Below are positions 4,250 through 20,877 of a stretch of DNA of 32,000 bases, in pieces. The position numbers and the translations under genes are program-made. Location of the stretch: positions 1 to 32,000 of the forward strand of contig JBAZRV010000001.1 of assembly GCA_041662745.1 (NCBI GenBank), read 5' to 3'. The stretch is from Patescibacteria group bacterium (GTDB taxonomy: Bacteria > Patescibacteriota > Patescibacteriia > 2-01-FULL-39-33). Each line of letters begins with the position of its first letter. The first letter of the stretch is position 1. The notes under the pieces were generated by a model. That model searched no databases. It was not told where the DNA came from and saw only the letters and a program-made list of their open reading frames with translations.

Positions 4250-7200
4250 TTAATTACAGCCGGCGCCGTCGCAACACTTGCCCAAACAGCACTTAGTAAC
4301 TCCGCTGGCGTCAGCTATGGGGAAATCCTTAGTTATTACCCAACTGCCATATTTAAATTGAGTCGTATCAATGGAAGTGGCAATCGGTTCCATGCAAGTC
4401 TTGGTACAATTCGGTCTAGCGCCGACGATATCCTTACAATTCATATAGCCGAAGGAAACGGGATTAACCTTATTAACCGGAGAGGGCGTAATTAAACCCA
4501 AATCAGTAACGCAACCAGCGGTATTATATTCATCATTGATTTTATAACGGCATTTATTGAATTCAATATTAGCCTGATAGCCCCAACCTGATGGCAACGT
4601 TGCTGGATCAGCTGCCGCGTTCTGCGGACCGGCGCCCGGCAAGTAACAATTCTGCGTAATTGATTCTAAACCTGAACCGGCACCGGGCGCATAAGTTACC
4701 GCCTGATCGTAAGGATTATGATTAAGTAGGGCCGCGCTATAATCAATCAGGCCGTCACCCGAACCCTGACCGTAAACATCGCCTTCATCTAAATTTTTTA
4801 CGCTGGCCCAATAACCGACGGGATTAGCGTTTTGCGTCACTGTATTTAACATTAGGAAGCGGATATAAAAATCCCTGTCCGCCAAGCCCTCGCCATAACC
4901 GAATCCCGGCTTTAAGGTTACGGGATTCATTAAACGATCGAAAGAAAAAACAATGGGATCGCCAAAAGTTTCATTAATATCCTGCCCCCAACGTTGATCA
5001 CCCTTCGGCTGAATAGAAAATAACAATGGCGCCTTGTCGTCAATAACTGTTGAAACGAAAAATGACCAGGAAAAATCATCACCTTGAGCCGAATTAGTAT
5101 TATAAGTCGGTTTTTCAATGCCATTATCAATGGTAAAAGTATCGTTTACCAGGTAGGGATTAGCCAAGCCGGAGTAACCATAAAGCGTACCGGTGACGAC
5201 TCGCCCCGTATGGCCTTCGGCTATGCCCACTATTTTACCCTTATCATCGGTTGCGCTGGTATAGTTGCCATTTAAGGAGTTACCGGCCATATCCATGATA
5301 CCGACAGTGCTTTCTAAGGCAGCCTTCGGATAATAAACGCCATTCTTCTGACAGCGATCATAAGCGTCGCCGTCACATTGGCCGCCCCAACGCTTGCACC
5401 AGCTATTATCACTATCATCTATACCCCCACCTTTGCACGATTGCAAAACAGCCGCAGAAATTACCACCCTGAACGGCTCTGACTTAGCAGCCGCTCCAGT
5501 CGAAGGGTCAATCCAGCAATATCTTTCTTTGCCGCAAGCATTTTTGCCGCAAGCGTAAATACCGGTCATCTGTACTGTTTTGTATTGATTGGAAATTTCA
5601 TATTTTATCCTATCTGCCGCGATATCGGTCCAAACATCACCGATCTTATTTTGAACCTTAATGGTATTAGACAGACTCAGCGGGTTAACCGCTTTGTTAA
5701 AAGTAACGAAAAAAACGGAATTATTATAAGGATCCGGCGCCGCTCCTTGCGGAGTCTTAAGTTGAGCCTTATCTTTTCCGGATAAATCGCCAACAACCGT
5801 CATGGTGTTATCAATCGCCGATTTATCAATGCTCAAAGTATTAGCTCCCGCTCCCTTGGGTTCAATAATCAAATATCTAAACAAACCGATTGATGCGATA
5901 GAGACATTCACCGAATTCCTGGCTTCGGAGCTGATAATAGCACTACGCAAATTTTCCAACGTGTCGCTAACATTGGCCGACTTGATTACGGCGATGTAAT
6001 TGACAGTTACCGGCTGACCGTCAGCTCCGACTTGGGTTTTAGCGATATTGGCATCGTTAATATAAGCATCGGAAGCAAAAATAAAATTAATTTTACTGGT
6101 GCTGTTATTAATAGTATAAGTATCGCCGGTAACGGCTGTTTCGGCAGTGAACCTCCATTGGCTGCCCCGAGGGAACGTGCCACCCTCAGCGGCGATAGTT
6201 AAACCATTGCCCAAATCAAAACTTACGCCGTTTACTATAGTAAAAGGTTTACCGCTGAGCGGAGCCGGGGAATCGGCAGAAAATACAGCCGTTCTGCCGT
6301 CGCTGGAAACAGTAAAATTAGCAGTGCCCGCGCCGAGCTCAAAACCGCTTTGCGCGCTGACATAAGCCTTAAAGCCGGCAGGAATATTACCGCCGGAATT
6401 AATCAATTCCTTTCTCAGCGGCCGGCCCAAAAAATACTCGCCCTGCAGTTTGATTGGTTTCTCCGCCTTCAGATCAACCAAAGATTGAATCGTAGTGGTT
6501 GACCGTCCTAACGTAGACTGGGAAGATGCTGAATATAAATCAGGAAGGGTATCGGGGTAGGGATAAACCTCATACTTTACGATCTGCGGCGGATCCAAGT
6601 CCATTTTGCCGTTGGTTTTGAAGGACCAAGCAAAATAATCCATTTTCCATAACTTAAAGATTGATTCGCCGGTGGAAGAGGCAATGATGCCGTTCTTTAA
6701 AGTTACCATGAACTCTCGATTGGCGTTATCCTCTTTGCCTAAAAATGATTTAGTCATGAAAACAAAGGTTTTGGCATTGCCCGGAGTTTGAGTAACGGTT
6801 GTATTGGCACCAGCAAAAACCTGAGCAGTGAAATCGCCTGTTCCTAAGCATTTACGCGGAGTGGAGGCCGTATCAGCTTCACAAATTTCAATATTATTGC
6901 TAGCGCTATTAGAACAATAACCCTCGGCATTGGGGACGCAAATACTATCCGATTTAATATTTGATTTAAAAGTTACGACAATTCTGGTGTCAATTGACAC
7001 ATCCGCCTGATTAGGCGCAGGATAAACGCTTTCAATCGGCCCATTGCCGATGCCGCCTCGCCCCCAATCATCCGGTCCGCCCGGTATGCCTCCGCCTCCG
7101 CCCGCGCCGCCGCCTCTTGGACCGAACAATCCCATCAGCCAAGTAGTAATGGCAAAGGCCGCGAAAATGATTATTAAACCGATAATAGCGTTATAAATGA

Positions 7201-7567
7201 TTTTTTTGGCTTTATTGACTTTGTCCGGATCTCCGCCGGCCGTCATCCAAATAAAACCGCCATAAATAATAAGTAATAGTACGATTACGCCCAATAAACC
7301 AAAAATAACCTGCAAAACCCGGCCAATATAAGTAGTAAGCGAGGTTTCGGTAGCGATTCCGGCAGCTTGTCCGACAGCCTGCAAATTAGCGTCTTGCGCT
7401 AAGACCGAGCTGGCGAAAAGAAAACCGAAAAAAGAAATAAAAAACACCAAAATAAGCGCCAACGCTCGTTTGGTGTTTCCAGTCACGATCAAAAACGACT
7501 TTAAATTCCCGCCCCGGGCGGAATTTGATCGCGAGAACTTTTGCATAGGGACAAAAGCTTTTGACAT
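4250..7567 (-). CDS. Giant (1105 aa) secreted/cell-surface protein with an N-terminal T4SS-pilin-like membrane module, a Gly-rich linker, bacterial Ig-like (SbsA/Big_5-type) segments and a Cys-rich C-terminus
   Basis: ORF track. Signal peptide ALALILVFFISFFGFLFASSVLAQDA, then two TM helices flanking TAGGDPDKVNKAK, then GGGAGGGGGIPGG. Ig-like motifs are VYPAPNQADVSIDTRIVVTFKSNI, VFFVTFNKAVNPLSL and IVFSFDRLMNPVTL. The protein ends KCCLGKCCDGAGCN. It lies 20 nt upstream of the paralog at 4229. Confidence 0.85.
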   Translation of the reverse strand: MSKAFVPMQKFSRSNSARGGNLKSFLIVTGNTKRALALILVFFISFFGFLFASSVLAQDANLQAVGQAAGIATETSLTTYIGRVLQVIFGLLGVIVLLLIIYGGFIWMTAGGDPDKVNKAKKIIYNAIIGLIIIFAAFAITTWLMGLFGPRGGGAGGGGGIPGGPDDWGRGGIGNGPIESVYPAPNQADVSIDTRIVVTFKSNIKSDSICVPNAEGYCSNSASNNIEICEADTASTPRKCLGTGDFTAQVFAGANTTVTQTPGNAKTFVFMTKSFLGKEDNANREFMVTLKNGIIASSTGESIFKLWKMDYFAWSFKTNGKMDLDPPQIVKYEVYPYPDTLPDLYSASSQSTLGRSTTTIQSLVDLKAEKPIKLQGEYFLGRPLRKELINSGGNIPAGFKAYVSAQSGFELGAGTANFTVSSDGRTAVFSADSPAPLSGKPFTIVNGVSFDLGNGLTIAAEGGTFPRGSQWRFTAETAVTGDTYTINNSTSKINFIFASDAYINDANIAKTQVGADGQPVTVNYIAVIKSANVSDTLENLRSAIISSEARNSVNVSIASIGLFRYLIIEPKGAGANTLSIDKSAIDNTMTVVGDLSGKDKAQLKTPQGAAPDPYNNSVFFVTFNKAVNPLSLSNTIKVQNKIGDVWTDIAADRIKYEISNQYKTVQMTGIYACGKNACGKERYCWIDPSTGAAAKSEPFRVVISAAVLQSCKGGGIDDSDNSWCKRWGGQCDGDAYDRCQKNGVYYPKAALESTVGIMDMAGNSLNGNYTSATDDKGKIVGIAEGHTGRVVTGTLYGYSGLANPYLVNDTFTIDNGIEKPTYNTNSAQGDDFSWSFFVSTVIDDKAPLLFSIQPKGDQRWGQDINETFGDPIVFSFDRLMNPVTLKPGFGYGEGLADRDFYIRFLMLNTVTQNANPVGYWASVKNLDEGDVYGQGSGDGLIDYSAALLNHNPYDQAVTYAPGAGSGLESITQNCYLPGAGPQNAAADPATLPSGWGYQANIEFNKCRYKINDEYNTAGCVTDLGLITPSPVNKVNPVSFGYMNCKDIVGARPNCTKTCMEPIATSIDTTQFKYGSWVITKDFPIADASGVTKCCLGKCCDGAGCN
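7130..7327 (-). repeat. Conserved pilin-like membrane module, copy 2 (paralogous to 3876-4070)
   Basis: Same motif block as copy 1. The rest of the two proteins is divergent. Confidence 0.85.
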
Positions 7568-10213: not shown

Positions 10214-10813
10214 CTACTTATACTCTGGCGTGCTAAAAACGGTAAAACGGCTAAAAGGCCAACCACGAATCCAGGTTCGGCCGACAATCAAATCTTTCTT
10301 AACTAATCCAAAAATGCGAGAATCCAACGATTGTCCGCGATTGTCGCCCAACAGAAAGTATTCATCTTCGGCTAAAGTAACCTCGCCATAACCGCGCACC
10401 GGCAAAACCGTCTCTGTCCCTGCCAATAAATAAGATTCTTCTAATTTATTACCGTTAATATACACGGCATTGTCTTGAATTTTTACTTTGTCGCCGGGCA
10501 AACCGATAACGCGTTTAATGAAATACTGCTTAGTGTCTTTGGGATATTTGAAAACAACGATATCACCGCGTTGCGGTTCATTGAACCGGTAGCTTATTTC
10601 ATCAATAATTAGGTACTCATGGTCATAAAAATTCGGTTCCATGGATGCTCCTTTGACATAGAAAGGTTGAATTAAAAAATACCTGACCGGTAAAATAATG
10701 GCCAAAGAAATAATGGCCACCCTGACCATTTCCCAAATAAATTCGGAAATCGCCTGCCATCGAGAACGATTGAGATTAAAGCCGTCAGAAATCTGATAAT
10801 TATCCATAAACAC
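10214..10813 (-). CDS. lepB: Signal peptidase I
   Basis: N-terminal TM segment, catalytic Ser box GASMEPNF, Lys box IKRVIGLPGD, and GDNRGQSLDSR. The start may be the GTG at 10813 or the ATG at 10807. Confidence 0.9.
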   Translation of the reverse strand: MFMDNYQISDGFNLNRSRWQAISEFIWEMVRVAIISLAIILPVRYFLIQPFYVKGASMEPNFYDHEYLIIDEISYRFNEPQRGDIVVFKYPKDTKQYFIKRVIGLPGDKVKIQDNAVYINGNKLEESYLLAGTETVLPVRGYGEVTLAEDEYFLLGDNRGQSLDSRIFGLVKKDLIVGRTWIRGWPFSRFTVFSTPEYK

Positions 10814-10930
10814 TAAAAATCGACTAGAGATAAAACAATCGAGTTATCCCCAACTGCATTAATTATTATATTTTAATCATAACATAAAATCTTAGAATAA
10901 ATCAAGTTTAAAAAACTCTTTTTTCCACAA

Positions 10931-10959
10931 TTGATCAAATTAAAACAATATGTTATGAT
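10931..10959 (+). promoter_or_regulatory. Sigma70-type promoter for the LCP gene
   Basis: TTGATC, 17-nt spacer, TGtTATGAT (extended -10). Confidence 0.5.
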
Positions 10960-11072
10960 ATATGAAGATATTCAACTTTCAAAAAAATTAATAAACGGCT
11001 ATATTTAGCTACTTTCGTCTAATTCAATTGCTTTTAATTTTTTAAAAAATCTAAAAAGAACGGACCGAGATT

Positions 11073-12716
11073 ATGTCTGACCCTATCAGAGTCAATTTCA
11101 TCAATGATCCAATAATTCAAGAAAAACCGGCCATTACTGTCAAACAGCAAAAATCGCCAGACCCAGAAACAGCCGGACCAGCCGTGTCTGCTCCACGCAG
11201 GCGGCATTTTAGTTTTAAAAAGTTAATTATCAGCTTAACCATAGCAATAATTATAGTTTTTATTGTTTTTTCATCTTCTATCGCCTTCTCTAACGAGAAT
11301 TTAATCAAAAACTTATCTCAATTCAATTGGCTGAGTCAAGTCGGCAGTTTAATCACTTCTGCCGATCGTGAACTCAAAGGTGAAGGCGAGGATCGCATTA
11401 ATTTCGTTATTATGGGGATCGGCGGGGGCGACCATGAAGGAGCGGAACTGGCAGACACGATTATCCTGGCCAGTTATAAACCGTCCACCAAACAAATCGC
11501 CCTAATGTCTATCCCTCGGGATCTGTACGTCAAAAGTCCGGGGTATGGCTGGGTGAAAATCAACGGCATCCGTGCCATTGCCGATAAAAAGAAAGCCGGC
11601 AGCGGCGATGAAGCAATGCGACAAACTCTTTCCGATTTACTGGACATTGATATCCAATATTACGCCACGGTTGATTTTGACGGCTTTGAAAAACTGATCG
11701 ATGACTTTGGCGGCGTCGATGTGGATGTAGAGCGTGATCTCATAGATTATTCTTATCCTATTCGCGGTCGGGAAGATTCCTATCCGATCGAAAGCCGCTA
11801 TGAAAAATTAATCATAAAAAAGGGCCAACAACATATGGATGGCGCTTTAGCCCTTAAATACGCCCGCAGCCGCCACGCCTTGGGTACGGAAGGATCTGAT
11901 TTTGCCCGTTCCAAACGCCAGCAAAAGATTCTTTTGGCCCTGAAGGACAAGATTCTGGCGCCGGGCACCTTCTTTAACCCGCAAAAAATCAACGGTCTGC
12001 TGGAAATGTATAACGAAAACGTCCATACCAACCTTCAAGTTTGGGAAATCATGCGTCTGTTACAATTCGGCCGGGATATTGATTTTAACCAAGGCATTAT
12101 CACTTATAGCCTGGTTGATGGAACTGAACAATTTTTATACGATCAGATGGTCAGCGGCGCTTACGTGCTTTTGCCTTACGGCGGCAACTACGACAAAATA
12201 AAATTCATTTGGCAGAACATTTATCTGCCGGAAATCGGCAAGGACTTGCTGATTGATAAAACCAAATGGGCCGAATTCAAGGATGCAACTTCCACCAAGG
12301 CCACTACCACCTCGTCAACTGCCGCTACCATAAAAACCAACAACACGACCGACGACTCCGCGACCAAACCCATTGCCGCGCCGACGGAAACCGCTAAACT
12401 CTACCCCAATGATCCGACAACCCAAGGTGAATCAACCTATCAAAAAGAACAGGCGCGCATTGAAATATTAAACGGCACCATGATCACCGGCTGGGCCGGA
12501 CAAGAAGCTGGCAAGCTCAAAGCCAAAGGATTTAATGTGATAAACAGCGGCAATGCCGCCACCAAAGGGTATGCTTCAATAAAAATTTATGATTTAAGCG
12601 GCGGCAGATATCAGCTAACCACTTCAGAGTTGCAAATTATCTATGGCGTAGAAGCCATTGCCCCGCCGGCCGGCTTAAAATCATCAGCTGATATTGTTAT
12701 AATTTTAGGCAAATAA
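11073..12716 (+). CDS. LytR-CpsA-Psr (LCP) family cell-envelope phosphotransferase with a C-terminal LytR_C-like domain
   Basis: TM anchor, then INFVIMGIGGGD...ADTIILASY...MSIPRDLYV...VDFDGFEKLIDDFGGVDVDV...ALKYARSRH. C-terminal ARIEILNGTMITGWAG. Confidence 0.85.
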   Translation: MSDPIRVNFINDPIIQEKPAITVKQQKSPDPETAGPAVSAPRRRHFSFKKLIISLTIAIIIVFIVFSSSIAFSNENLIKNLSQFNWLSQVGSLITSADRELKGEGEDRINFVIMGIGGGDHEGAELADTIILASYKPSTKQIALMSIPRDLYVKSPGYGWVKINGIRAIADKKKAGSGDEAMRQTLSDLLDIDIQYYATVDFDGFEKLIDDFGGVDVDVERDLIDYSYPIRGREDSYPIESRYEKLIIKKGQQHMDGALALKYARSRHALGTEGSDFARSKRQQKILLALKDKILAPGTFFNPQKINGLLEMYNENVHTNLQVWEIMRLLQFGRDIDFNQGIITYSLVDGTEQFLYDQMVSGAYVLLPYGGNYDKIKFIWQNIYLPEIGKDLLIDKTKWAEFKDATSTKATTTSSTAATIKTNNTTDDSATKPIAAPTETAKLYPNDPTTQGESTYQKEQARIEILNGTMITGWAGQEAGKLKAKGFNVINSGNAATKGYASIKIYDLSGGRYQLTTSELQIIYGVEAIAPPAGLKSSADIVIILGK

Positions 12717-12725
12717 AAAAATAAT

Positions 12726-13325
12726 ATGAAAAAATTCGGTAAGCCAGAATTAGGTTATACTGGCGGACAAATCGAGGAGGAATTATTTGCAGAAGTAAAT
12801 CGGCCATTACGCCTGACATTTGAACAATGGTTGAAAAATCGTGATAAGTTTAGAATGTCCAAATCAGAAATGTTTAGACTCATTAAAGAAAACCAACCAG
12901 CAGCCCCAACCACTCCCGATACTGATTTTGCCTACGATACCCAATCGGAAATAGTAGAATTATTGCAAAAAGAAGAAGAATTTTCTGAGGTTGATTATAA
13001 TGATTTACTTTCTAGAGTTAAGTTTTTTACTGCTGTAAATTCTCCCTTGGATTACGGCTTAGGCATTGATGCTTTTTTTGAAATTTATTTGGACGATGAG
13101 CACTTTATAAGAATTACCCTGGATGCGGCCGGTTGGGAAAAAGGAGATTATAAAGCTGATATTTTAATTGTTTATCCTGAAGAAGGAATTGACCCCAAAG
13201 AAGACAAAAAGGACTGGAAAAAATTCATTCAAGATCAAGCCCAATTTATTGTGGAAAAATTTAAATCTAAATTAAAAAACCATGAAGTCGAAAGAACAAG
13301 AGGAAATATCAAAAAGGCTGTTTAA
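12726..13325 (+). CDS. Hypothetical protein (199 aa, acidic)
   Basis: ORF track only. It starts 9 nt after the LCP stop. I recognise no family. Confidence 0.55.
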   Translation: MKKFGKPELGYTGGQIEEELFAEVNRPLRLTFEQWLKNRDKFRMSKSEMFRLIKENQPAAPTTPDTDFAYDTQSEIVELLQKEEEFSEVDYNDLLSRVKFFTAVNSPLDYGLGIDAFFEIYLDDEHFIRITLDAAGWEKGDYKADILIVYPEEGIDPKEDKKDWKKFIQDQAQFIVEKFKSKLKNHEVERTRGNIKKAV

Positions 13326-13587
13326 CCAAATAAATAAAGCTGTTGCTGACGGAAACCATTGGCCTGATGTAAACATTATTAAAGAAGCATTATCAGGCGA
13401 CGCGATAATCGCGATATTTTGCCATGGTTGCGGATTTACTCAGGGATTGACTCAAGAAGGATTAAATATTATAGCCCAGGATACCGAGTTAAAATTGACA
13501 GAAAATAACAATGGAATTTTTATCGGAGTTGATCGCTGTAATTTATGTGATGATAATTTAGAAAATTTAAGGATTGAAAAATTATAA
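13282..13587 (+). CDS. Hypothetical small protein with a four-Cys (CHGC...CNLC) putative zinc-binding pattern
   Basis: ORF track. Overlaps the previous ORF by 44 nt. No clear SD. Followed directly by a terminator. Confidence 0.4.
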   Translation: MKSKEQEEISKRLFNQINKAVADGNHWPDVNIIKEALSGDAIIAIFCHGCGFTQGLTQEGLNIIAQDTELKLTENNNGIFIGVDRCNLCDDNLENLRIEKL

Positions 13588-13600
13588 CCTATTACCCAAT

Positions 13601-13633
13601 AAAAACAACCGCCAAATGGCGGTTGTTTTTATT
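13601..13633. terminator. Bidirectional rho-independent terminator between convergent genes
   Basis: AACAACCGCC-aaat-GGCGGTTGTT, a 10-bp stem flanked by an A-run and a T-run. Confidence 0.8.
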
Positions 13634-13640
13634 ATTATCT

Positions 13641-14429
13641 CTATCTTCTTTTATGATGCTTATGAGACGGCATTTTAGGCAATGCTTGCGACCCCAACCA
13701 GGCTAATTCAAACAAGGAAACGAAAGTTTCGTAAATATTTTTATCCTCAATAATCACGCCGTTTAATTTATCCTTCAGCGAGGCAATCCGGACCTTATTA
13801 TCAAAAAAAGCGATATCGCAATTAATCGGGAATCTATCAGCCGAAATTCTTAATCGTTCATCAAGCGGACTGGGATGAGCGCGATCCTCGCCTTCCTTTA
13901 AAGTAAATATGGCTTTAGTTTTTGTTTTGCTGGCTACTCGATCTTGGTAAGCTTTATTGACTTCTTCTGCCGAGTACACTTTGCGCAAATCATCCAACGA
14001 GAAAAAGGCGCGGATAAGCTGTGATTTGGAAGACATCTGCTCTTGCACCATCGTTCGCAAGCCTTCTTTGCCTTCAAAAAACCTAACCACCGGCTTATTC
14101 TCCTGCTTATTGTAAATCGCTCGCAATTGCGGCATCAAATCATTAATCATTTTTTGCTTTTCTTCTATCTCTGCCTTTTCTAATTCCAGCGCGCTAATAA
14201 TCATTTCCGGCGATTCGGCAATGTAGCGGACTTTTTTATCTTTGCCGGCATAAGTGCTGCATAAGCCTTTTTTGATCAAAGAATCCAAAATCACATAAGT
14301 GGTCGGCCGATTAACGCCGGCTTTTTTGGAAATATCCTGCACTGAAGCTTGGCCCAATTCCAAAGTAGCCAAATAAACTTTGGCTTCTTTGTCGGATAAA
14401 CCGATTTTTTTCAATTCATTTATAAACAT
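13641..14429 (-). CDS. TrmB-family transcriptional regulator
   Basis: N-terminal winged HTH LGLSDKEAKVYLATLELGQASVQDISKKAGVNRPTTYVILDSLIKKGL, plus a C-terminal TrmB-type sensor-like domain. Confidence 0.8.
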   Translation of the reverse strand: MFINELKKIGLSDKEAKVYLATLELGQASVQDISKKAGVNRPTTYVILDSLIKKGLCSTYAGKDKKVRYIAESPEMIISALELEKAEIEEKQKMINDLMPQLRAIYNKQENKPVVRFFEGKEGLRTMVQEQMSSKSQLIRAFFSLDDLRKVYSAEEVNKAYQDRVASKTKTKAIFTLKEGEDRAHPSPLDERLRISADRFPINCDIAFFDNKVRIASLKDKLNGVIIEDKNIYETFVSLFELAWLGSQALPKMPSHKHHKRR

Positions 14430-14471
14430 ATCTAGTATAATTAATGTCTATATTATTTTAGCTTAAATTCA

Positions 14472-14517
14472 TTTTTTAAAAAAGAGGGGGCGCTTCCGAA
14501 CTCGTCGGAGCGCCCCT
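14472..14517 (-). terminator. Rho-independent terminator ending the leftward accessory transcript
   Basis: Minus strand reads GGGGCGCTCCGA-cgagt-TCGGAAGCGCCCCC followed by TCTTTTTT. Confidence 0.8.
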
Positions 14518-14844
14518 TAGGTACCATTAATGTTCTTGTCTACTGACTGCTAGCCGGTTCTTATTATTGCCCCGGTAGGCAGTCATCGCACAGTCTTTTT
14601 TGACTTTTTTGACCCTTTTTGCGAGTCTTGAGCCTTCAGAGATTCAATCATTGTTTAGATCAACCGAGTCCGCCCATAGCTAAGCTACTCCTTTCTGATT
14701 CAGTGGTGTAACGGTTAGATAGCGATCACTCCAAGCCCCGACGCGCGCCAGATCCAGATTTGAACCGGAATCATGGCGCAGAGGGTGGGTGGAGTTATCC
14801 GCTACCCATAACCATCTCCTTTCTGCGGTTGTGGCTATTGCCGA
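14518..14844 (-). ncRNA. Structured ~330-nt 3' tail or ncRNA of the leftward small-gene transcript
   Basis: No ORF longer than 22 aa on the minus strand. Contains the tRNA-like minihelix (14745-14779), the hairpin GACTGC..CCGG/CCGG..GCAGTC (about 14541-14581), a duplicated CAGAAAGGAG..TATGGG..GCGGA motif and three A-tracts. Confidence 0.35.
14745..14779 (-). other. tRNA-like acceptor/T-arm minihelix (not a complete tRNA)
   Basis: Minus strand reads GCGCCA-t-GA-t-TCCGG-TTCAAAT-CTGGA-TC-TGGCGC. That is 13 bp closed by a canonical 7-nt T-loop sequence. One G-U pair would be an A-C mismatch on the plus strand. There is no D or anticodon arm and no CCA. Confidence 0.4.
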
Positions 14845-15072
14845 TTACTTCTTGTTAAACGCCGCCTTCATCATAAAAACAACCACCGCCACCACCAGTC
14901 CGAGCTGAATCGCCTGCATCGCCAATGGCCCCAATTCAGCAAAGAGTTGATTACAGGCATCAGCCAAGACTCCTGGAAACAAACGGACAAACACCAGCGA
15001 AGTGCCAATACCTGCCAATGTTCCCAGAAACCGTTGCGGCGTGCCAAAGAAAAAACGCAAATAGCTATTCAT
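14845..15072 (-). CDS. Small (75 aa) hydrophobic membrane protein
   Basis: Internal ATG at 15072 within track ORF 14845-15171, preceded by GGGGGGAA, with its start 1 nt after the upstream TAA stop (15074-15076). Sequence MNSYLRFFFGTPQRFLGTLAGIGTSLVFVRLF...LGLVVAVVVFMMKAAFNKK, with two predicted TM segments. Confidence 0.5.
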   Translation of the reverse strand: MNSYLRFFFGTPQRFLGTLAGIGTSLVFVRLFPGVLADACNQLFAELGPLAMQAIQLGLVVAVVVFMMKAAFNKK

Positions 15073-15073
15073 T

Positions 15074-15253
15074 TTATTCCCCCCGTTGCTTTTCCACCGC
15101 GCGTTTGTCGCGTTGGCGGTCGTATCCCTTCTTGCCCAGTTTACTGCCATGGACACCGCCGGTTTTGACAATCGTCGGCCCGCGCTGTTTCAAAAGCAAC
15201 TCCATCGGTTTAATAACCCCAACTAAAATAGTTCCTTTTTTGCTGTGACTCAT
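15074..15253 (-). CDS. Small (59 aa) basic protein
   Basis: Below the track cutoff, translated by hand: MSHSKKGTILVGVIKPMELLLKQRGPTIVKTGGVHGSKLGKKGYDRQRDKRAVEKQRGE. Strong SD AAAAGGAGAG 4 nt before the ATG. Confidence 0.5.
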   Translation of the reverse strand: MSHSKKGTILVGVIKPMELLLKQRGPTIVKTGGVHGSKLGKKGYDRQRDKRAVEKQRGE

Positions 15254-15319
15254 AATTCTCTCCTTTTAAAGTTCTTTAGCTTCTAGTCAGCCCTATACTG
15301 ACTTTTAGCTTGATATATC

Positions 15320-15348
15320 AGTATATCACATAGTATAAATTTTGTCAA
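15320..15348 (-). promoter_or_regulatory. Near-consensus sigma70 promoter (leftward)
   Basis: Minus strand TTGACA, 17 nt, TGtGaTATACT. Confidence 0.65.
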
Positions 15349-15434
15349 CAGCAATTAACAAAAACTTATCCACAGCCCCTATTTAAAACCAAGAAAAAAC
15401 GAATGATTAACAGCTTAAAAGTGTTTTTGATACG

Positions 15435-15460
15435 ATTATGTCAGCTTTAACTGACATAAT
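15435..15460. promoter_or_regulatory. Perfect inverted repeat (10-bp arms, 6-bp spacer) between the divergent promoters
   Basis: ATTATGTCAG-ctttaa-CTGACATAAT. Confidence 0.55.
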
Positions 15461-15468
15461 TATAATAG

Positions 15469-15498
15469 AATATTTTATCTAAATTTAGATAAAATATT
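15469..15498. promoter_or_regulatory. Perfect 30-bp palindrome between the divergent promoters (candidate operator)
   Basis: AATATTTTATCTAAA/TTTAGATAAAATATT, ending 30 bp upstream of the -35 of the rightward promoter. Confidence 0.55.
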
Positions 15499-15528
15499 AA
15501 TAAAAAAATAAATTATTTATAATAACCA

Positions 15529-15557
15529 TTGACAAAATAATTTTAGTGTGATACAAT
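15529..15557 (+). promoter_or_regulatory. Near-consensus sigma70 promoter (rightward) driving the large RNA
   Basis: TTGACA, 17 nt, TGaTACAAT. Its first 10 nt, TTGACAAAAT, are identical to the leftward promoter and to the promoter at 27146-27174. Confidence 0.65.
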
Positions 15558-15562
15558 GATTT

Positions 15563-16790
15563 ATCAACCTGGTGAAACCAATGTCAAAACTTTCCGACAA
15601 GGAACAAAACCCAGGGTGATAGATTGAACTAAAATTGACAATCAAACAACCTCAAAATCCGTTGATAACCCGATTAAACTGATTAAAAACGGATTAAGTT
15701 CTGCCAAATTAGACTGGATTTTCCAGTTTAATCGGCTTAACTGGAGGCTAGCAAGCTTGCTCCTAAATGAGCTTCTGCCCCGTTTCTTGCAAACGGGGTG
15801 AAATAAAGCCTACTATCTCCGGCTGTCGGAAAGATTTATTTGATATGGGTCCCCGAATATTTTTGCTTCGACCTAACGGTCTTAACGCAAAAATTTCGAG
15901 GATGACATTGACGGATAATCAGCTAAATAAAACTTGTCGTGCTAAGAACCTTAAATAATAATATTACTGACGCGTCTGTGCCGAATTGCCTTTCATAAAT
16001 TATGAAAAATAATTCGGTGCAGATGCGCGCAGGCATCCGAGCACTACCTTAGAAAAGCTGGCCATCCAAATACGACACCTGATCAGGTCGTTGAGGGAAA
16101 CTCGGCAGTAAGGTAACACAGCCATATAGGGCTGTTCTAAACTTCCGTCATTTCATCGTCATGGCGATGGATGTGATGCGGAAGGACACCTCCTCATTAC
16201 CACAGCGGTAAAAGACCGCTGGAGGAGCTGAATGGATGCCTGGTAAGCATCCGGATTATCCTGAACAGGCTAAGGGGGCAAGCAGATCCGCCAAGAAGGT
16301 GGAGCGGCTGATGGCAAAGCTTAAGCTTGCATCCCATAAAACGCCTAATGTTCAAGATAATCCACTGCGCAAGAATAGTTTCTTAAGGGACGAGAAGAGA
16401 TGTATTACGGCTTTAGCTGAGTAGGATGGAAAAAACCATCGCAAAAAGCAGCCGATCTCTGATCGTGCCCGAGGTTCCTCCGGCAACCGTAATGGCGGTT
16501 GCATGAGAGAAGTCCGACCGATCGGGCTTCAAAGCTATAGGTCGAGGCAGCGGCCATAATAGTAAAAAGACGGGGAGATGACAGCTGAAAATGCTGTTTC
16601 TTGACCCCGCCTGCGATGAAAACCTCATCGCCACGTGGAACTACGCCGAGATCGTAGGAAGCGCTCACGGCTAATGTGAGATGGGTGTGAGGACACCAAG
16701 GAGGCTGGCTAACAGCAACCACTGCACGGTTTTTCTGGTGATTTTTACAGTCGGGAAAAATCACCGTTCCACTTTAGCGAATAAATTATT
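15563..16790 (+). ncRNA. Candidate large (~1.2 kb) structured noncoding RNA or giant structured leader, family unknown
   Basis: No credible ORF. There are at least 10 strong local helices: 15778-15798, 15971-16027, 16142-16184, 16190-16227, 16234-16252, 16483-16502, 16509-16530, 16571-16609, 16613-16631 and 16737-16765. G-U pairs make the structure strand-specific. Interleaved helices at 15656-15735. The exact ends are unknown. Confidence 0.45.
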
Positions 16791-16812
16791 TGTTCACTAA
16801 AGCGGACATTAA
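16737..16812 (+). repeat. Hairpin plus 44-nt box module, copy 1
   Basis: GGTGATTTTT-acagtcggg-AAAAATCACC, then 3 nt, then CCACTTTAGCGAATAAATTATTTGTTCACTAAAGCGGACATTA. The downstream ATG is at 16844. Confidence 0.7.
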
Positions 16813-16843
16813 AAAACCCAATAACCACAGGGAGGATACAATC

Positions 16844-17275
16844 ATGGAAAATCAAGCAACTGGCTTGGTTAATGACCAACTTCGCTCCCAACTGGTAATA
16901 TTAGTCAAACACGGGATTATGCCTCAGCCCAAACCGCTAAAAAATATGGTGCGGGCCAGAAGGATTAATTTTGAAGAAGATGGTGCTAGCAATTTTGGTT
17001 ATTCTGAAATTGTGCTCTGCGTTAATGGCCGAGCTCATTTGAAGGTCAGTCATAGCTGGTTGGAAAATGGCGACCATGATGAAACTAACAATTCAGCAAC
17101 GGTAACTCGTTGCGATTGCCATAACTACCATGATCTGCTGATTAACGCAGAACATGCGGATTTGATCGAAAAATTTCTGCAAACTGATGAAGACCAAAAA
17201 TTAGAACAAACATTTGCACCATTTACATTTCCGTGTGACTATTTACAAAACCAACAACCAGGAGATTTATCATGA
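16844..17275 (+). CDS. Hypothetical protein (143 aa)
   Basis: ATG at 16844 with SD GGGAGGA 7 nt upstream. The track's TTG start at 16790 falls inside the conserved box. I recognise no family. Confidence 0.6.
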   Translation: MENQATGLVNDQLRSQLVILVKHGIMPQPKPLKNMVRARRINFEEDGASNFGYSEIVLCVNGRAHLKVSHSWLENGDHDETNNSATVTRCDCHNYHDLLINAEHADLIEKFLQTDEDQKLEQTFAPFTFPCDYLQNQQPGDLS

Positions 17276-17565
17276 GCGATACGAGACAGAAGTGCCAGTT
17301 GTGCGGTGGTTTGGGTATGAATGGGGCCAAGTGGCTGGTTAAGACGAACGACGGCAAATCCGTCCAGGTGCATAAGCCCTGCGGCGAAAAGCTGATCGAA
17401 TCGGCACCAGCTGAGGTAGGCGCTAAACTCGTCCCGAGTCCCGAGCTGAAAGCCGAATGGACCGCCAAGCGGACCGAACGACAAGCCAGGGACTTTTGGG
17501 CGAGCCGATGCCCGCAACTACTTGAGATCAAGAAAGATCTTGAGCAAAAGGAGAACACGACATGA
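17272..17565 (+). CDS. Hypothetical protein (97 aa) with an N-terminal CxxC...C zinc-ribbon-like pattern
   Basis: ATGA start/stop overlap with the upstream ORF, and SD AGGAG. Sequence KCQLCGGLG...VHKPCGEKL with a basic helical C-terminus. Confidence 0.6.
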   Translation: MSDTRQKCQLCGGLGMNGAKWLVKTNDGKSVQVHKPCGEKLIESAPAEVGAKLVPSPELKAEWTAKRTERQARDFWASRCPQLLEIKKDLEQKENTT

Positions 17566-17586
17566 CCTAGCACCCTTACAGGTTTT

Positions 17587-17658
17587 GATGATTTACCCTT
17601 AAAAAATCATCAGCCCACTTGAGTGAATAAATTATTTGTTCATTAAAGCGGACGTTAC
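17587..17658 (+). repeat. Hairpin plus 44-nt box module, copy 2
   Basis: GATGATTT-acccttaaa-AAATCATC, then 3 nt, then CCACTTGAGTGAATAAATTATTTGTTCATTAAAGCGGACGTTA. That is 4 mismatches to copy 1 over 44 nt, with the same hairpin-to-box spacing. Confidence 0.7.
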
Positions 17659-17682
17659 TAAACATCAAAAAGAGGGATAACC

Positions 17683-17889
17683 ATGAATGATGAAGACAAA
17701 CTTCGCCGACACCAAATTCGACAACTCAGTCAGGCCAAAGACCATGCCAAACGTCGGCAAATAGGTCGGAAAAGACAAGCCGGTACCGAAGACCTGACCA
17801 AAAACCAATTTGAGAAAAAATTTCCGCACCTATCAATCAAAGTTTGGTATGCCCAGCGCTGCTTTGTTGGCAAGGGTTACGATTGGTAA
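17683..17889 (+). CDS. Hypothetical small basic protein (68 aa)
   Basis: ORF track. SD AGAGGGA upstream and a terminator downstream. Confidence 0.5.
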   Translation: MNDEDKLRRHQIRQLSQAKDHAKRRQIGRKRQAGTEDLTKNQFEKKFPHLSIKVWYAQRCFVGKGYDW

Positions 17890-17910
17890 AAAATGTAACT
17901 TTTTAAATTA

Positions 17911-17941
17911 AAAAGACGAGGCGTCAAAACCTCGTCTTTTA
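17911..17941. terminator. Bidirectional rho-independent terminator (accessory cassette versus leuS)
   Basis: AAAAGACGAGG-cgtcaaaa-CCTCGTCTTTT. Confidence 0.85.
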
Positions 17942-17958
17942 TAATTGAATAATTAAAA

Positions 17959-20877
17959 TCAAACCACAATACTGACCAACTTGCCTTTAATAAAAATAAC
18001 TTTCTTGGGCTCGCCAGTCAAATATCTTTTAACGTTTGCATCATTAAGCGCCGCGGCCTTGGCTGTCTCCTCCGTTACATCCGTCGGTAAAACCAATTTT
18101 GCTCTAATTTTGCCATTAACCTGCACTGGAATTTCCTTTTCAGCATCAACGACTTTAGCCGGATCATACTCTGGCCATTTTTCTTTAAAAATACTAGTTT
18201 CGTGCCCGAGCTGATACCATAATTCTTCACACATATGTGGAGCAAAAGGAGATAAGATAATTAGAAACGATTTTTTGATAAATTCTAAAGAAGCCTCATC
18301 TATTTTTTGTTTATCTACTTTTTTTTCTACTTCATTTTTCCCTGTATTCCAAAAATTTATCAAAATCATAAATTGAGAAATCGCGGTATTAAACTTCATT
18401 TCTTCTATATCTTCCCCAGCTTTCTTTATTATCCTATGCATTTCTCTAATCATCCAACCTTCATTAGGTGATATCTTATTCCACCAATCTTTATCCTGAT
18501 AAAATTCCCAAACCTTATTCAAAAACCGATGCACGCCCAAAATATTTTTTGTACTCCAGGGTTTCATATCTTCCAAGGGGCCCATAAACATTTCATACAT
18601 GCGGAAAGTGTCGGCGCCATATTCTTTCAGGATGTCATCGGGATTAACCACATTGCCGCGAGACTTAGACATCTTCTCTCCATCCTCTCCCAAAATCAAA
18701 CCCTGATTAACCAGCTTGGCAAACGGCTCCTCAAACGGCACTGCTTCAATATCAAATAGAACCATATTCCAGAACCGAGCATAAAGCAAATGCAAAACCG
18801 CATGCTCAGCACCGCCCAAATACAAATCAACCGGCAACCAATACTTCAATTTTTCTTGATCGGCGAAAGCTTTGTCATTGTGCGAATCAATATATCTTAA
18901 CCAATACCAAGAAGAACCGGCCCATTGGGGCATAGTGTTGGTTTCGCGCTTAGCCGGACCGCCGCAGGTAGGGCAAGTCGTATTAACCCACTCGTCAATG
19001 GTCGCGAGCGGCGACTCGCCCGTTCCGGTCGGTTCGTATTTTTCTACTTCCGGCAAAGTCAAAGGCAAGTCTTTTTCCTCAAGCGGCACAATACCGCATT
19101 TCTCGCAGTGAACTAACGGAATCGGCTCGCCCCAATAGCGTTGGCGCGAAAATACCCAGTCGCGCAATTTATAATTAATCGCTTTCTGTCCGCAGCCCTT
19201 CTCTTCCAGCCAATCAGTCATCTTACCAATTGCTTTGGCCGGCGCCAAACCATTTAAAAATTCAGAATTAACCATCAAGCCATTATCAACATCGGTATAG
19301 GCGATATCGCCTTTTTTAATCCGCTCCAACCAAATATCCATTTCGGCATGAACCATAAAATCCAAAGTCAGCTCGTCCGGATTCTTCCATAAAATCTCAT
19401 TCTGAGCTTCCTTTTCCTCGTCAGAAATATCCACCTGTTCCTCATCAATTAAATCAAACTCTACTAAGTTGGTATAAGAAACACGATTAACATCTTTGTG
19501 ATTAGCAAAATATTCGGCTCGCACCTGTCCGCCCAAAATCTTGCCATTAGCAAGATTCTTATAACCGGTTTCTTCCAGAACTTCCCGCTTGGCCGCTGCC
19601 AGTAAATCCTCATCTTGGCCAACACCGCCCATCGGAAAAGTAACCCAGTTATATTTGTGGGAATGCAAGCATAAGATTTTTCCGGTTTTAGGATTTCTAA
19701 CCACTACTTGGACGTTATGCCTCTCAATTTTTTCCTTGCCAACGACCGGTGGGTTCCTTTTATCGATCCTCTCCGGAATAATCACTTCAATAATGGGCAA
19801 ATCAAACTTCTTGGCAAACTCGAAATCCCGCTCATCATGCGCCGGCACCGCCATAATCGCGCCCGTGCCATAGGTCGCCAAAACATAATCGGAAATCCAG
19901 ATAGGAATTTCAGTATTATTGACGGGATTAATCGCCTTAATGCCTTTTAATTCAACGCCGGTTTTGTCTTTATTCAATTCTGTCCTTTCCAAATCTGATT
20001 TATTTTTAGCAGTTACAATATAATCTTCAACTTCAGGAAAGTTACTGATTTTATCTTTCAATTCTTGAACCAATTTATGCTCCGGCGCCAAAACCATATA
20101 AGTCGCGCCGAATAAAGTGTCGGGGCGCGTAGTATAAACCCTGATTTTTTCATCACTATCGGCAATCTTAAAATCAACTTCCGCTCCCTCGCTTCGGCCG
20201 ATCCAATTTCTCTGCAAAGTTTTGATTGATTCCGGCCAAGCCAGTTTTTCAACTCCCTCTAACAATCTATCGGCATAAGCGGTAATCTTTAACATCCATT
20301 GGCGCATATCGCGGCGCTCCACTGCCGTACCGCAACGATCGCATTTGCCGTCTTTGACTTCTTCATTAGCTAAACCGGTCTTGCAAGACGGACAGAAATT
20401 TATCGGTATGGTGGCTTCATAAGCCAAGCCCTTTTTAAATAATTGCAAAAAAATCCACTGCGTCCATTTGTAATATTTCGGGTCAGTCGTATCCACTTCC
20501 CTGTCCCAATCATAGGAGAATCCCAGTGATTGGATTTGGCGTTTGAAAGTAGCGATATTGGCCTCGGTCGTAATTCGCGGATGCGTGCCGGTTTTAATGG
20601 CATAATTTTCGGCCGGCAAACCAAAGGCGTCCCAACCCATGGGGTGTAAGACATTAAAACCCTTGAGACGCAAATAACGGGAATAAATGTCAGTTGCCGT
20701 ATAGCCTTCCGGATGACCGACATGGAGTCCGGCTCCTGACGGATAAGGGAACATATCCAAAACATACTTTTTAGGCTTGACACTAAAATCTTCGGCCTGA
20801 TCAATTTTGGTGTTCAACCACTTGTCTTGCCATTTTTTTTCTCCGCCCGAAATGATGAATTCTTTGTATGAAGCCAT
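17959..20877 (-). CDS. leuS: Leucine--tRNA ligase carrying an inserted Nudix-hydrolase-like domain
   Basis: HVGHPEGY (HIGH), CP1 editing domain ([25 protein letters not shown]), KMSKS, and [17 protein letters not shown]. At 972 aa it is long for a bacterial LeuRS (from memory). Residues ~368-525 contain the Nudix box [23 protein letters not shown]. Confidence 0.95.

Follow-up and report, generated by a model that had tools for sequence, protein, structure and literature searches.

In the early and late operons of phage T7, hairpins between cistrons are processed by RNase III, and repetitive extragenic palindromic (REP) elements form intercistronic hairpins that stabilize mRNA. Among integron attC arrays, clusters of attC sites lacking integron-integrases (CALINs) are without IntI by definition. 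The bar minigenes of phage lambda and leader-peptide mini open reading frames (mini-ORFs) consist of a Shine-Dalgarno (SD) sequence, an AUG, a few codons and a stop. Structured RNAs that lie within 4 kb of rsr, on its strand, are classed as bacterial Y RNAs, and these carry GNCGAAN0-1G in the 5′ strand of the terminal helix and a tRNA-like T/D domain (PMC4201824). Here we analyze a block of ~3.5 kb in a Patescibacteria group bacterium (assembly GCA_041662745.1, contig JBAZRV010000001.1, positions 1 to 32,000; this 32-kb stretch is hereafter the window). The block lies between a trmB-type regulator gene and leuS, comprises two arms that are read in opposite directions and is ~60% non-coding. 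It is the core of a chromosomal locus that is restricted to a narrow lineage and adjoins the regulator gene. We give a probability of roughly 50% to an architecture in which gated twin promoters, P_L (leftward) and P_R (rightward), produce a modular P_R transcript punctuated by a repeated two-hairpin box and a P_L small RNA (sRNA, the “tail”) with mini-ORFs.

The boxes resemble the T7 hairpins and REP elements in that they recur between cistrons and stand ahead of an unstructured leader with a strong ribosome-binding site, but their sequence and two-hairpin design are unrelated, they also head non-coding modules, and cleavage at the boxes is only predicted. With integron attC arrays and CALINs the locus shares small genes in one orientation, imperfect hairpin repeats with variable apices and a varying order. 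It differs in that the box lies 5′ of each module, the last gene has no box after it and no integrase was found among the scanned genes; the R″ and R′ boxes of attC (RYYYAAC ... GTTRRRY) are absent from the at least 12 aligned boxes inspected. The tail twice shows the bar-like arrangement of SD, AUG, three to four sense codons and a stop within a non-coding transcript, kept in three genomes, whereas its Gly and Ser codons and the overlap with a hairpin arm, as read from the sequence, suggest structure switching rather than tRNA sequestration. Like the GOLLD, ROOL, OLE, HEARO and raiA RNAs, the locus has ~1 kb of gene-free, highly structured RNA downstream of a strong promoter; unlike them, this leader has no Rfam match and is mostly unconserved even among close relatives. 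Likeness to the Ro60 (Rsr)/Y RNA (YrlA/YrlB) loci comes from a distant relative of the locus (L106), in which a Ro60 gene shares a predicted transcript with structured RNAs, from a hairpin with a T-loop-like loop in the window tail, and from CCGAA in the 5′ strand of a long-hairpin motif. In contrast to those loci, the window lacks a TROVE gene and any match to a Y RNA model, its RNAs are much longer and modular, the T-loop is not kept in L106, and GNCGAAN0-1G occurs in only some copies of the hairpin.

The locus and its relatives

The five small genes of the block encode proteins of 59, 75, 143, 97 and 68 amino acids (p59, p75, p143, p97 and p68) and carry locus tags WC668_00055 to 00080 in the public NCBI record, each annotated as “hypothetical protein”. 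Public gene calls were also taken from the ENA metagenomic contig ERZ27249449 k141_167583. We compared the window with the related loci L005, L085, L086, L097, L102, L103/L104, L105 and L106 (about 9-10 contigs). A genome scan with LeuS returned one close species, L005, whose LeuS is 80% identical and whose arrangement is that of the window: trmB, tail, twin promoters, RNA, small genes and leuS. L085, L086, L102, L103/L104 and L105 were reached by exact-protein look-up of p97 or p143 homologs. A metagenome scan with the box pattern returned 13 loci, 12 of them single chance matches and only one, L097, a relative. L106 was reached through a distant p143 homolog. Its DNA similarity to the window spans the 5′ end of trmB, P_L, P_R, the start of the tail and one box, which establishes it as a locus of the same type; it contains trmB, twin promoters, palindromes, tail, boxes, hairpin motifs, and p143-like and p59-like genes. 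The chromosomal position is kept on the trmB side in L005 and L106 and on the leuS side in L005, L085 and L097. Covariance models (CMs) of the box and of the long-hairpin motif gave zero matches in 34 other Patescibacteria leuS loci.

A preliminary description of the block, made from the letters alone, had proposed an RNA-centred accessory system, as opposed to junk intergenic DNA, that is bounded by terminators, organized around near-identical back-to-back promoters and equipped with five ORFs of no recognized family. Much of this holds. Terminators were found on both sides (14487-14516 on the minus strand and 17906-17946), the two promoters align with each other, and the ORFs are publicly called as genes whose products returned nothing from Pfam, PHROGs and PADLOC. 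The proposed check of synteny yielded homologous loci, including one (L005) with both flanks, trmB and leuS; the small genes are under purifying selection, and conserved, covarying RNA elements frame the locus. The description had also named three grounds for abandoning its proposal, namely a lack of homologs, a lack of coding constraint and a match to a prophage, and none of the three was found. Its view of the cassette as self-contained needs revision. The trmB gene appears to belong with the cassette, which is therefore probably not self-contained.

A two-hairpin box precedes the modules of the rightward transcript

A 62-nt direct repeat in the window is part of a box element of ~80 nt. Box 1 (16735-16819, plus strand; folding z score -5.3) lies before p143-p97 and box 2 (17585-17665, plus strand), which is 84% identical to box 1, lies before p68; the two score 83.7 and 82.5 bits with the box CM (R1). 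Each box runs from a GGUUU(Y) stretch through hairpins H1 and H2 to AC.UUA, and is followed by a CA-rich unstructured stretch, a strong SD and a start codon. The stem of H1 covaries (GCCGAUU/AAUCGGC, GAUGAUU/AAUCAUC, GGUGAUU/AAUCACC and GCCGAG/CUCGGC). The base of H2, CCAC...GCGG, is invariant and includes a conserved A-C mismatch, and the apices, whose sequences are unrelated yet keep the pairing, extend from a loop of 3 nt up to an additional stem of ~110 nt. Across 12 aligned boxes, 88.5% of the cells pair and eight pairs change on both sides. None of 500 shuffles matched the observed pairing values, and every slid register collapsed. Nine further copies were found in relatives with CM R1, all on the sense strand and eight of them over the full model length.

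The boxes stand before genes and RNAs alike. In L085, L086 and L106, a box directly precedes the long-hairpin RNA motif. The order box-p143-p97 is shared by the window, L085 and L086; L103 has box-p97-box-p143, and L005 is without p143. The placement of p59 varies as well: it follows p97 in L005, L085 and L097, comes last in L086 and, in the window, belongs to the other arm. In the window, L005, L085 and L097, p68 is the last gene, and a terminator rather than a box comes after it.

Two other identities for the boxes were considered and rejected. They are not sigma-70 promoters, as a correctly spaced -10 element is missing and the length of the H2 apex differs between copies (3 to ~110 nt), and motif and Rfam searches rejected hammerheads and other Rfam ribozymes. 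In a distant, GC-richer contig (L087), tandem p143 paralogs occur, and at least two of the three genes are headed by a repeated hairpin element of that contig’s own (GCCGAGTCTTCGGATTCGGC..., at 121-162 and 696-737). This suggests that the rule of a box before each small gene predates the box sequence itself.

The rightward leader is a composite

Downstream of P_R lies a gene-free leader of ~1.28 kb. In 200-nt windows over 15600-16900 on the plus strand, z scores range from -3 to -5.7, compared with about -1 to +1 in flanking coding DNA. The ~1.2-kb structured RNA of the preliminary description is thus confirmed as a stable fold, but it is not one conserved unit: it combines a few conserved motifs with sequence that varies between lineages. 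Four pieces are conserved, namely the promoter with the first 45 nt, 15812-15840, the hairpin motif at 15966-16051, and 16179-16256. Because the synonymous divergence (dS) between the window and its relatives is at least 1, non-coding blocks that are 80-90% identical are under constraint. Conversely, as dS is saturated, failure to align does not amount to absence of function.

The 5′ leader domain (15558-15845, plus strand) comprises ~290 nt and is closed by pairing of 15812-15840 with 15586-15599 (closing stem 15586-15599 with 15824-15837), as determined from an alignment and consensus fold of five sequences. Its first 45 nt are kept and the first ~100 nt are 85-88% identical to relatives despite a dS of at least 1; the inner hairpins differ among genomes. 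A local hairpin, UGUC...GACA, competes with the long-range closing stem. The domain has shrunk to ~90 nt in L105.

The long-hairpin RNA motif (15966-16051, plus strand) reads YGCACCGAAUU and, after an apex that varies, UUCGGUGCAG; a second, small hairpin that takes either of two forms comes next, and then RAGCAC. We found nine copies in seven loci, with two each in L085 and L106, and compensatory double changes at 8 of the 23 pairs. The corresponding CM (R2) retrieves all copies on the sense strand with 68-84 bits and nothing elsewhere; the window copy scores 75.4 bits and has a z score of -6.0.

The remainder, 16052-16734 (plus strand), is a variable, hairpin-rich RNA without a conserved ORF, with z scores of -3 to -5.4 that are more negative on the plus strand. 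It cannot be aligned to relatives except for a 78-nt block (16179-16256) that is 81% identical to L102. In the window, L005 and L103 alike, the folds of the unalignable parts of the leader are far more stable than those of shuffled sequence, and the excess is greater on the sense than on the antisense strand. Between the promoter and the first protein gene lie as little as ~0.1 kb (L105) and as much as ~2.8 kb (L106). In L085 and L086, ORFs occupy the region equivalent to the window leader. Some of these, at 1039-1335 in L085 and 990-1430 in L086, are short and contain a single T2SSF (PilC-like) domain or fragments of it where the window has non-coding RNA. The idea that the 3′ half of the leader is a recent pseudogene of the relatives’ genes found no support in tblastx comparisons. 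At 16220-16252 (plus strand), GGAGGAG is followed by AUG GAU GCC UGG UAA; this mini-ORF is identical in L102, the ribosome-binding site is nearly so, and the surrounding sequence has diverged. The stretch may be a third mini-ORF-like feature, in addition to the two in the tail, or may represent merely two conserved hairpins.

Twin promoters, candidate operators and the trmB gene

P_L (15320-15348, minus strand; TTGACA-17-TATACT) and P_R (15529-15557, plus strand; TTGACA-17-TACAAT) each have a TG extension and match 11 of the 12 positions of the sigma-70 consensus. They can be aligned both to one another and to the L005 and L106 promoters, and the pattern TTGACAAA-N13-TRTGATAYAMTG is present in all six copies. 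Between them, at 15438-15498, a repeat search detected two palindromes that are candidate operators: an inverted repeat at 15438-15461 and a perfect 30-bp palindrome at 15469-15498. Both have altered sequence in L005 and L106 and yet stay palindromic there.

The adjoining gene (13641-14429, minus strand) encodes a TrmB-type winged helix-turn-helix protein (Pfam TrmB, E 2.7e-15) and is a candidate for the regulator. It adjoins the cassette in three of the three loci with a known left flank (the window, L005 and L106), with orthologs flanking the L005 and L106 loci. The trmB promoter contains a half-site, TTAAGCTAAAATAAT (14452-14466, minus strand), that resembles each half of the central palindrome and has one mismatch to TTTAGMTAAAATAWT. 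The TTTAGMTAAAATAWT half-site has five matches in the window (0.99 expected), and the best three are 14452-14466 and the two halves of the 30-bp palindrome. On these leads, the TrmB-type protein appears to be the likeliest regulator of the twin promoters, with p97 as an alternative. The half-site at 14452-14466 overlaps the predicted -10 region of the trmB promoter, and trmB may be autoregulated.

The leftward transcript is closed just upstream of trmB by an intrinsic terminator (14478-14516, minus strand) whose hairpin at 14487-14516 (-23.4 kcal/mol) is followed by U6, and which has equivalents in L005 and L106. On the other side, a bidirectional intrinsic terminator is common to the cassette and leuS (17906-17946, both strands; -17.1 kcal/mol on the plus and -18.2 kcal/mol on the minus strand, with a U-run on each); its hairpin has a z score of -5.6.

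A leftward sRNA with two mini-ORFs

The tail (14478-14844, minus strand; z = -5.25) is ~70% identical in L005. The preliminary description had placed this structured RNA, ~330 nt of which lie downstream of p75, at the 3′ end of a leftward two-gene arm. Comparison with relatives argues otherwise: in L005 the tail is preceded by a different ORF, and in L106 it comes immediately after P_L, without an intervening ORF. This indicates that the tail is the ancestral P_L product and that p59-p75 is a lineage-specific insertion, and the tail is, as judged from these arrangements, an independent conserved sRNA rather than the 3′ end of the p59/p75 genes.

Two mini-ORFs of 4-5 codons, each with a AGAAAGGAG-type SD at a spacing of 4-10 nt and thus a near-perfect ribosome-binding site, lie within the tail. 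SD1 (AGAAAGGAG, 14816-14824) and mini-ORF1 (14795-14809, MGSG*) together span 14795-14824 on the minus strand and are kept in three genomes, where the peptides read MGSG*, MGSG* and MGSD* with synonymous third-base changes. SD2 (14688-14696) and mini-ORF2 (14660-14677, MGGLG*) span 14660-14696 on the same strand and have equivalents in L005 (MDGVG*) and L106 (MPGD*). The 3′ end of mini-ORF1 falls within the 5′ arm of a conserved hairpin of ~85 nt. In the window and L005, the tip of this hairpin (14745-14779, minus strand) carries a T-loop-like UUCAAAU loop, identified from sequence and fold, that is not found in L106. The tail had earlier been credited with a tRNA-like minihelix. Its structure stands, and the minihelix does not: the feature is a hairpin with a T-loop-like loop only, searches with ARAGORN and Rfam were negative, and ARAGORN detected no tRNA or tmRNA in the cassette.

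Small proteins under purifying selection

The small ORFs are real genes under purifying selection. The ratio of nonsynonymous to synonymous substitution rates (dN/dS) relative to related loci is 0.11-0.23 for p97, 0.19 for p143, 0.14 for p68 and 0.32 for p59, at a dS of at least 1, which is saturated. In the leftward arm, p59 (15074-15253, minus strand) is basic, contains a ...KGKKGYDR... motif and has homologs in the rightward arm of L005, L085, L086, L097 and L106. p75 (14845-15072, minus strand), recognized as an ORF and in the public gene calls, has two hydrophobic segments and one homolog of 75 amino acids with 52% identity, and is absent from L005 and L106; a proposed relationship to a 71-amino-acid protein of L102 with two transmembrane segments was rejected. 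In the rightward arm, p143 (16844-17275, plus strand) belongs to a small family with the common core GASNGG...LC.DG..HL...SW (the “GASNGG”-motif family) and eight homologs among 1.84 billion representatives. p97 (17272-17565, plus strand) combines a CxxC...HxxC zinc treble-clef domain with a helical hairpin. Besides the window protein it has eight homologs, which are 65-97% identical and in which C8, C11, H34 and C37 are invariant. p68 (17683-17889, plus strand) is basic and has homologs in L005, L085 and L097.

None of the five proteins has a match in Pfam, PHROGs or PADLOC, and a profile search of the cassette proteins against PDB returned zero matches. The structure prediction called for in the preliminary description covered two proteins. 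The AlphaFold2 (AF2) model of p97 consists of an N-terminal zinc treble-clef and a C-terminal helical hairpin (pLDDT 87.5), and the core of the p143 model consists of four antiparallel beta strands and a helix (pLDDT 71). The accompanying Foldseek searches provided leads only, namely generic zinc-finger (eL24, ZZ and B-box) and weak PUR-like resemblance, and no significant match.

A Ro60 gene and a hammerhead candidate in a distant relative

In the predicted rightward transcript of L106, a gene at 10847-12532 (plus strand) encodes a protein with TROVE and vWA_Ro60 domains (E 1.5e-16, above the Pfam cut-off). Upstream of it on the same strand is ~2.8 kb of gene-free structured sequence, with the RNAs within 4 kb. 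Between the p143-like and the Ro60 gene, at 10457-10530 (plus strand), is a type III hammerhead candidate (Hammerhead_3) with three stems and the full core CUGANGA...GAAA...UH. Its score of 29.4 bits falls short of the 48.5-bit gathering score owing to the length of stem II (E 3.6e-4 locally, and 0.0095 when the whole locus is considered). Neither a Y RNA nor a YrlA model matched the window (Rfam 15, at the gathering score and at E up to 10) or L106 (E up to 1). Relative to the Y RNA motif GNCGAAN0-1G, the window and L103 hairpins have GCCGAA, most copies have ACCGAA and L005 has GCCGGA. As the window has no TROVE gene, hammerhead core or Y RNA model match, we treat the Ro60 connection as a lead and not as a classification. 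Because L106 pairs Ro60/TROVE with a hammerhead candidate, RNA binding, processing or quality control is the most likely theme for the locus, a function that we infer with much lower confidence than the architecture.

Proposed mechanism and alternative explanations

The architecture set out above builds on the anatomy of the locus, its conservation, the covariation of its RNA elements and the purifying selection on its genes. In the mechanism that we propose, the TrmB-type protein or p97 would bind the palindromes between the promoters and gate both P_L and P_R. P_R would drive a modular transcript of ~2.35 kb with the 5′ leader, the long-hairpin motif, the variable hairpin-rich RNA and the small-gene modules. 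The box would serve as RNA punctuation, that is, as a nuclease recognition or processing site and a stabilizer that releases or protects the module RNAs, in a manner resembling phage intercistronic processing hairpins. P_L would ancestrally produce an sRNA of 330-480 nt with two mini-ORFs that ends at the terminator before trmB, p59 and p75 having presumably been inserted ahead of it in the window genome. Translation of the tail mini-ORFs may couple to RNA structure upstream of trmB. Together, the small, putatively RNA-binding proteins and the structured RNAs may act in RNA binding, processing or quality control. The parts of this mechanism that reach beyond the observations are which protein is the regulator, processing at the RNA level and a role in RNA metabolism.

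Several points weigh against it. The transcript ends and processing sites are predictions from sequence. Because related contigs number only ~10, the covariation statistics are weak. In the boxes, G-U pairs are about as common as A-C mismatches, so that pairing alone does not decide the strand or distinguish RNA from single-stranded DNA, and the 3′ arm of H2 is far more conserved than the 5′ arm, which fits sequence recognition equally well. The greater part of the 1.2-kb leader shows no conservation, and L105 dispenses with it. Foldseek comparison of the protein models with PDB and BFVD gave no significant match. For the RNA-metabolism theme, the scanned ORFs of the window include no TROVE match and the cassette contains no hammerhead core, and the Ro60 link rests on one distant locus in which the gene could be incidental cargo. 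A stronger version, in which a regulator-gated array of structured RNAs and small RNA-binding-protein genes, novel as an RNA-centred system of Patescibacteria, has boxes that are self-cleaved or cut by a dedicated nuclease, and in which the hairpin motif and the tail are functional Y RNA analogues or new ribozymes working with Ro60-type quality control, seems to us rather unlikely.

The failure of most of the leader to align raises the question of whether the functional unit consists of the small-protein genes together with their promoter, most of the 1.2-kb RNA being a long, dispensable 5′ untranslated region (UTR) left by decayed or exchanged cassettes. Only ~250 nt of the leader are conserved, its length varies as described, and relatives have ORFs or T2SSF-like fragments at the equivalent place. 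Neutral junk, however, is expected to have z scores near zero, and in three genomes the unalignable parts show strong structure that is specific to one strand; moreover, the hairpin motif and one further block inside the leader are conserved. We therefore consider a dispensable UTR doubtful. The high conservation of the 5′ segment could instead mark a cis-regulator, such as a ligand- or protein-sensing riboswitch or a processive antiterminator, that controls the small genes. The opposition of the UGUC...GACA hairpin and the long-range stem would suit a switch, and the leader is kept before differing downstream cargo. Yet there is no Rfam match (for the cassette, searches at the gathering score and with E values of up to 10 yielded chance miRNA and snoRNA matches alone, and no riboswitch, RNase P, 6S or large non-coding RNA), no internal terminator is evident, the inner domain is unconserved, and L105 and L106 are without the long-range stem. 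We give such a sensor little credence.

The shuffled modules admit a different reading, of an integron-like or otherwise recombination-driven cassette array in which the boxes are folded single-stranded DNA sites that shuffle the cassettes. Module order does vary (p97-box-p143 in L103 versus box-p143-p97 in the window), p59 occurs in four positions, and the boxes recall attC sites, being imperfect hairpins whose mismatch is conserved and whose apex varies. However, neither the genes scanned in the 32-kb window nor the flanks of L106 include an integrase or other recombinase, and the boxes do not contain RYYYAAC/GTTRRRY. A box stands before the first module and none after the last gene in the window, L005, L085 and L097. 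A constant distance separates the box from the ribosome-binding site and start codon, a sign that the box has a role in expression, and ordinary homologous recombination between 80-nt repeats suffices for the shuffling. A recombination array is accordingly very improbable. The preliminary description had itself named an origin from a phage or satellite, a defence or counter-defence module and a host-interaction module of an episymbiont as possibilities, and some features do look phage-like: strong divergent promoters with operators, tiny genes of no recognized family, the hammerhead in a relative, zinc-finger small proteins, which are frequent in phages, and weak BFVD matches. The searches gave these origins no support. 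Three DNA-pattern scans and one p97-family protein scan of viral contigs gave zero matches, blastn found no match in 50,697 phage or 72,556 plasmid records, PHROGs was empty, and PADLOC assigned none of the five proteins to a defence family. No integrase or phage gene was detected among the scanned window genes, and no att-like direct repeats were found flanking the block. The chromosomal position is also constant in a species whose LeuS is only 80% identical. We judge a prophage or satellite remnant, or an anti-phage island, to be a highly unlikely origin, and return to the gated, box-punctuated architecture.

Under that architecture, at least four RNA elements are new to Rfam (the 5′ leader, the long-hairpin motif, the two-hairpin box and the tail sRNA with mini-ORFs), along with five small-protein families without a Pfam match. 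P_L and P_R are among the strongest-looking promoters in the window. In the tiny genomes of Patescibacteria, where non-coding DNA has little space, one would not expect a conserved locus that is ~60% non-coding and driven by two such promoters. If the boxes are processing sites, they would constitute a novel transcript punctuation under which RNA and protein cargo are interchangeable. If the Ro60 link is true, Ro60/Y-RNA-type biology would extend to episymbiotic bacteria and the locus would supply new candidate client RNAs. The known distribution, ~10 metagenomic contigs, is narrow and limits how widely the finding applies.

Neighboring genes

Between the small-gene array and leuS, L005 has two further genes (12922-15630) that encode proteins of 320 and 566 amino acids without a Pfam match, and at the equivalent position the contig P0002 has a gene of 600 amino acids. 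The 566-amino-acid protein was tested as a divergent Ro60, and this was rejected. Among the scanned genes, the neighbors in the window encode HisS, a signal peptidase, a LytR-family protein, UvrA, POR subunits, DsbA and LeuS, so that housekeeping genes stand alongside hypothetical ones. Giant proteins with a T4SS-pilin domain, which are typical of this bacterial group, are also encoded near the cassette. One of them is a T4SS_pilin protein of 1105 amino acids (4250-7567, minus strand), and its neighbor reaches 4193 amino acids on the source contig. The Pfam domains listed for the public gene call place a NUDIX domain within the middle of the synthetase in the window LeuS (17959-20877, minus strand); this insertion is missing from the L085 ortholog and present in the L005 ortholog (80% identity).

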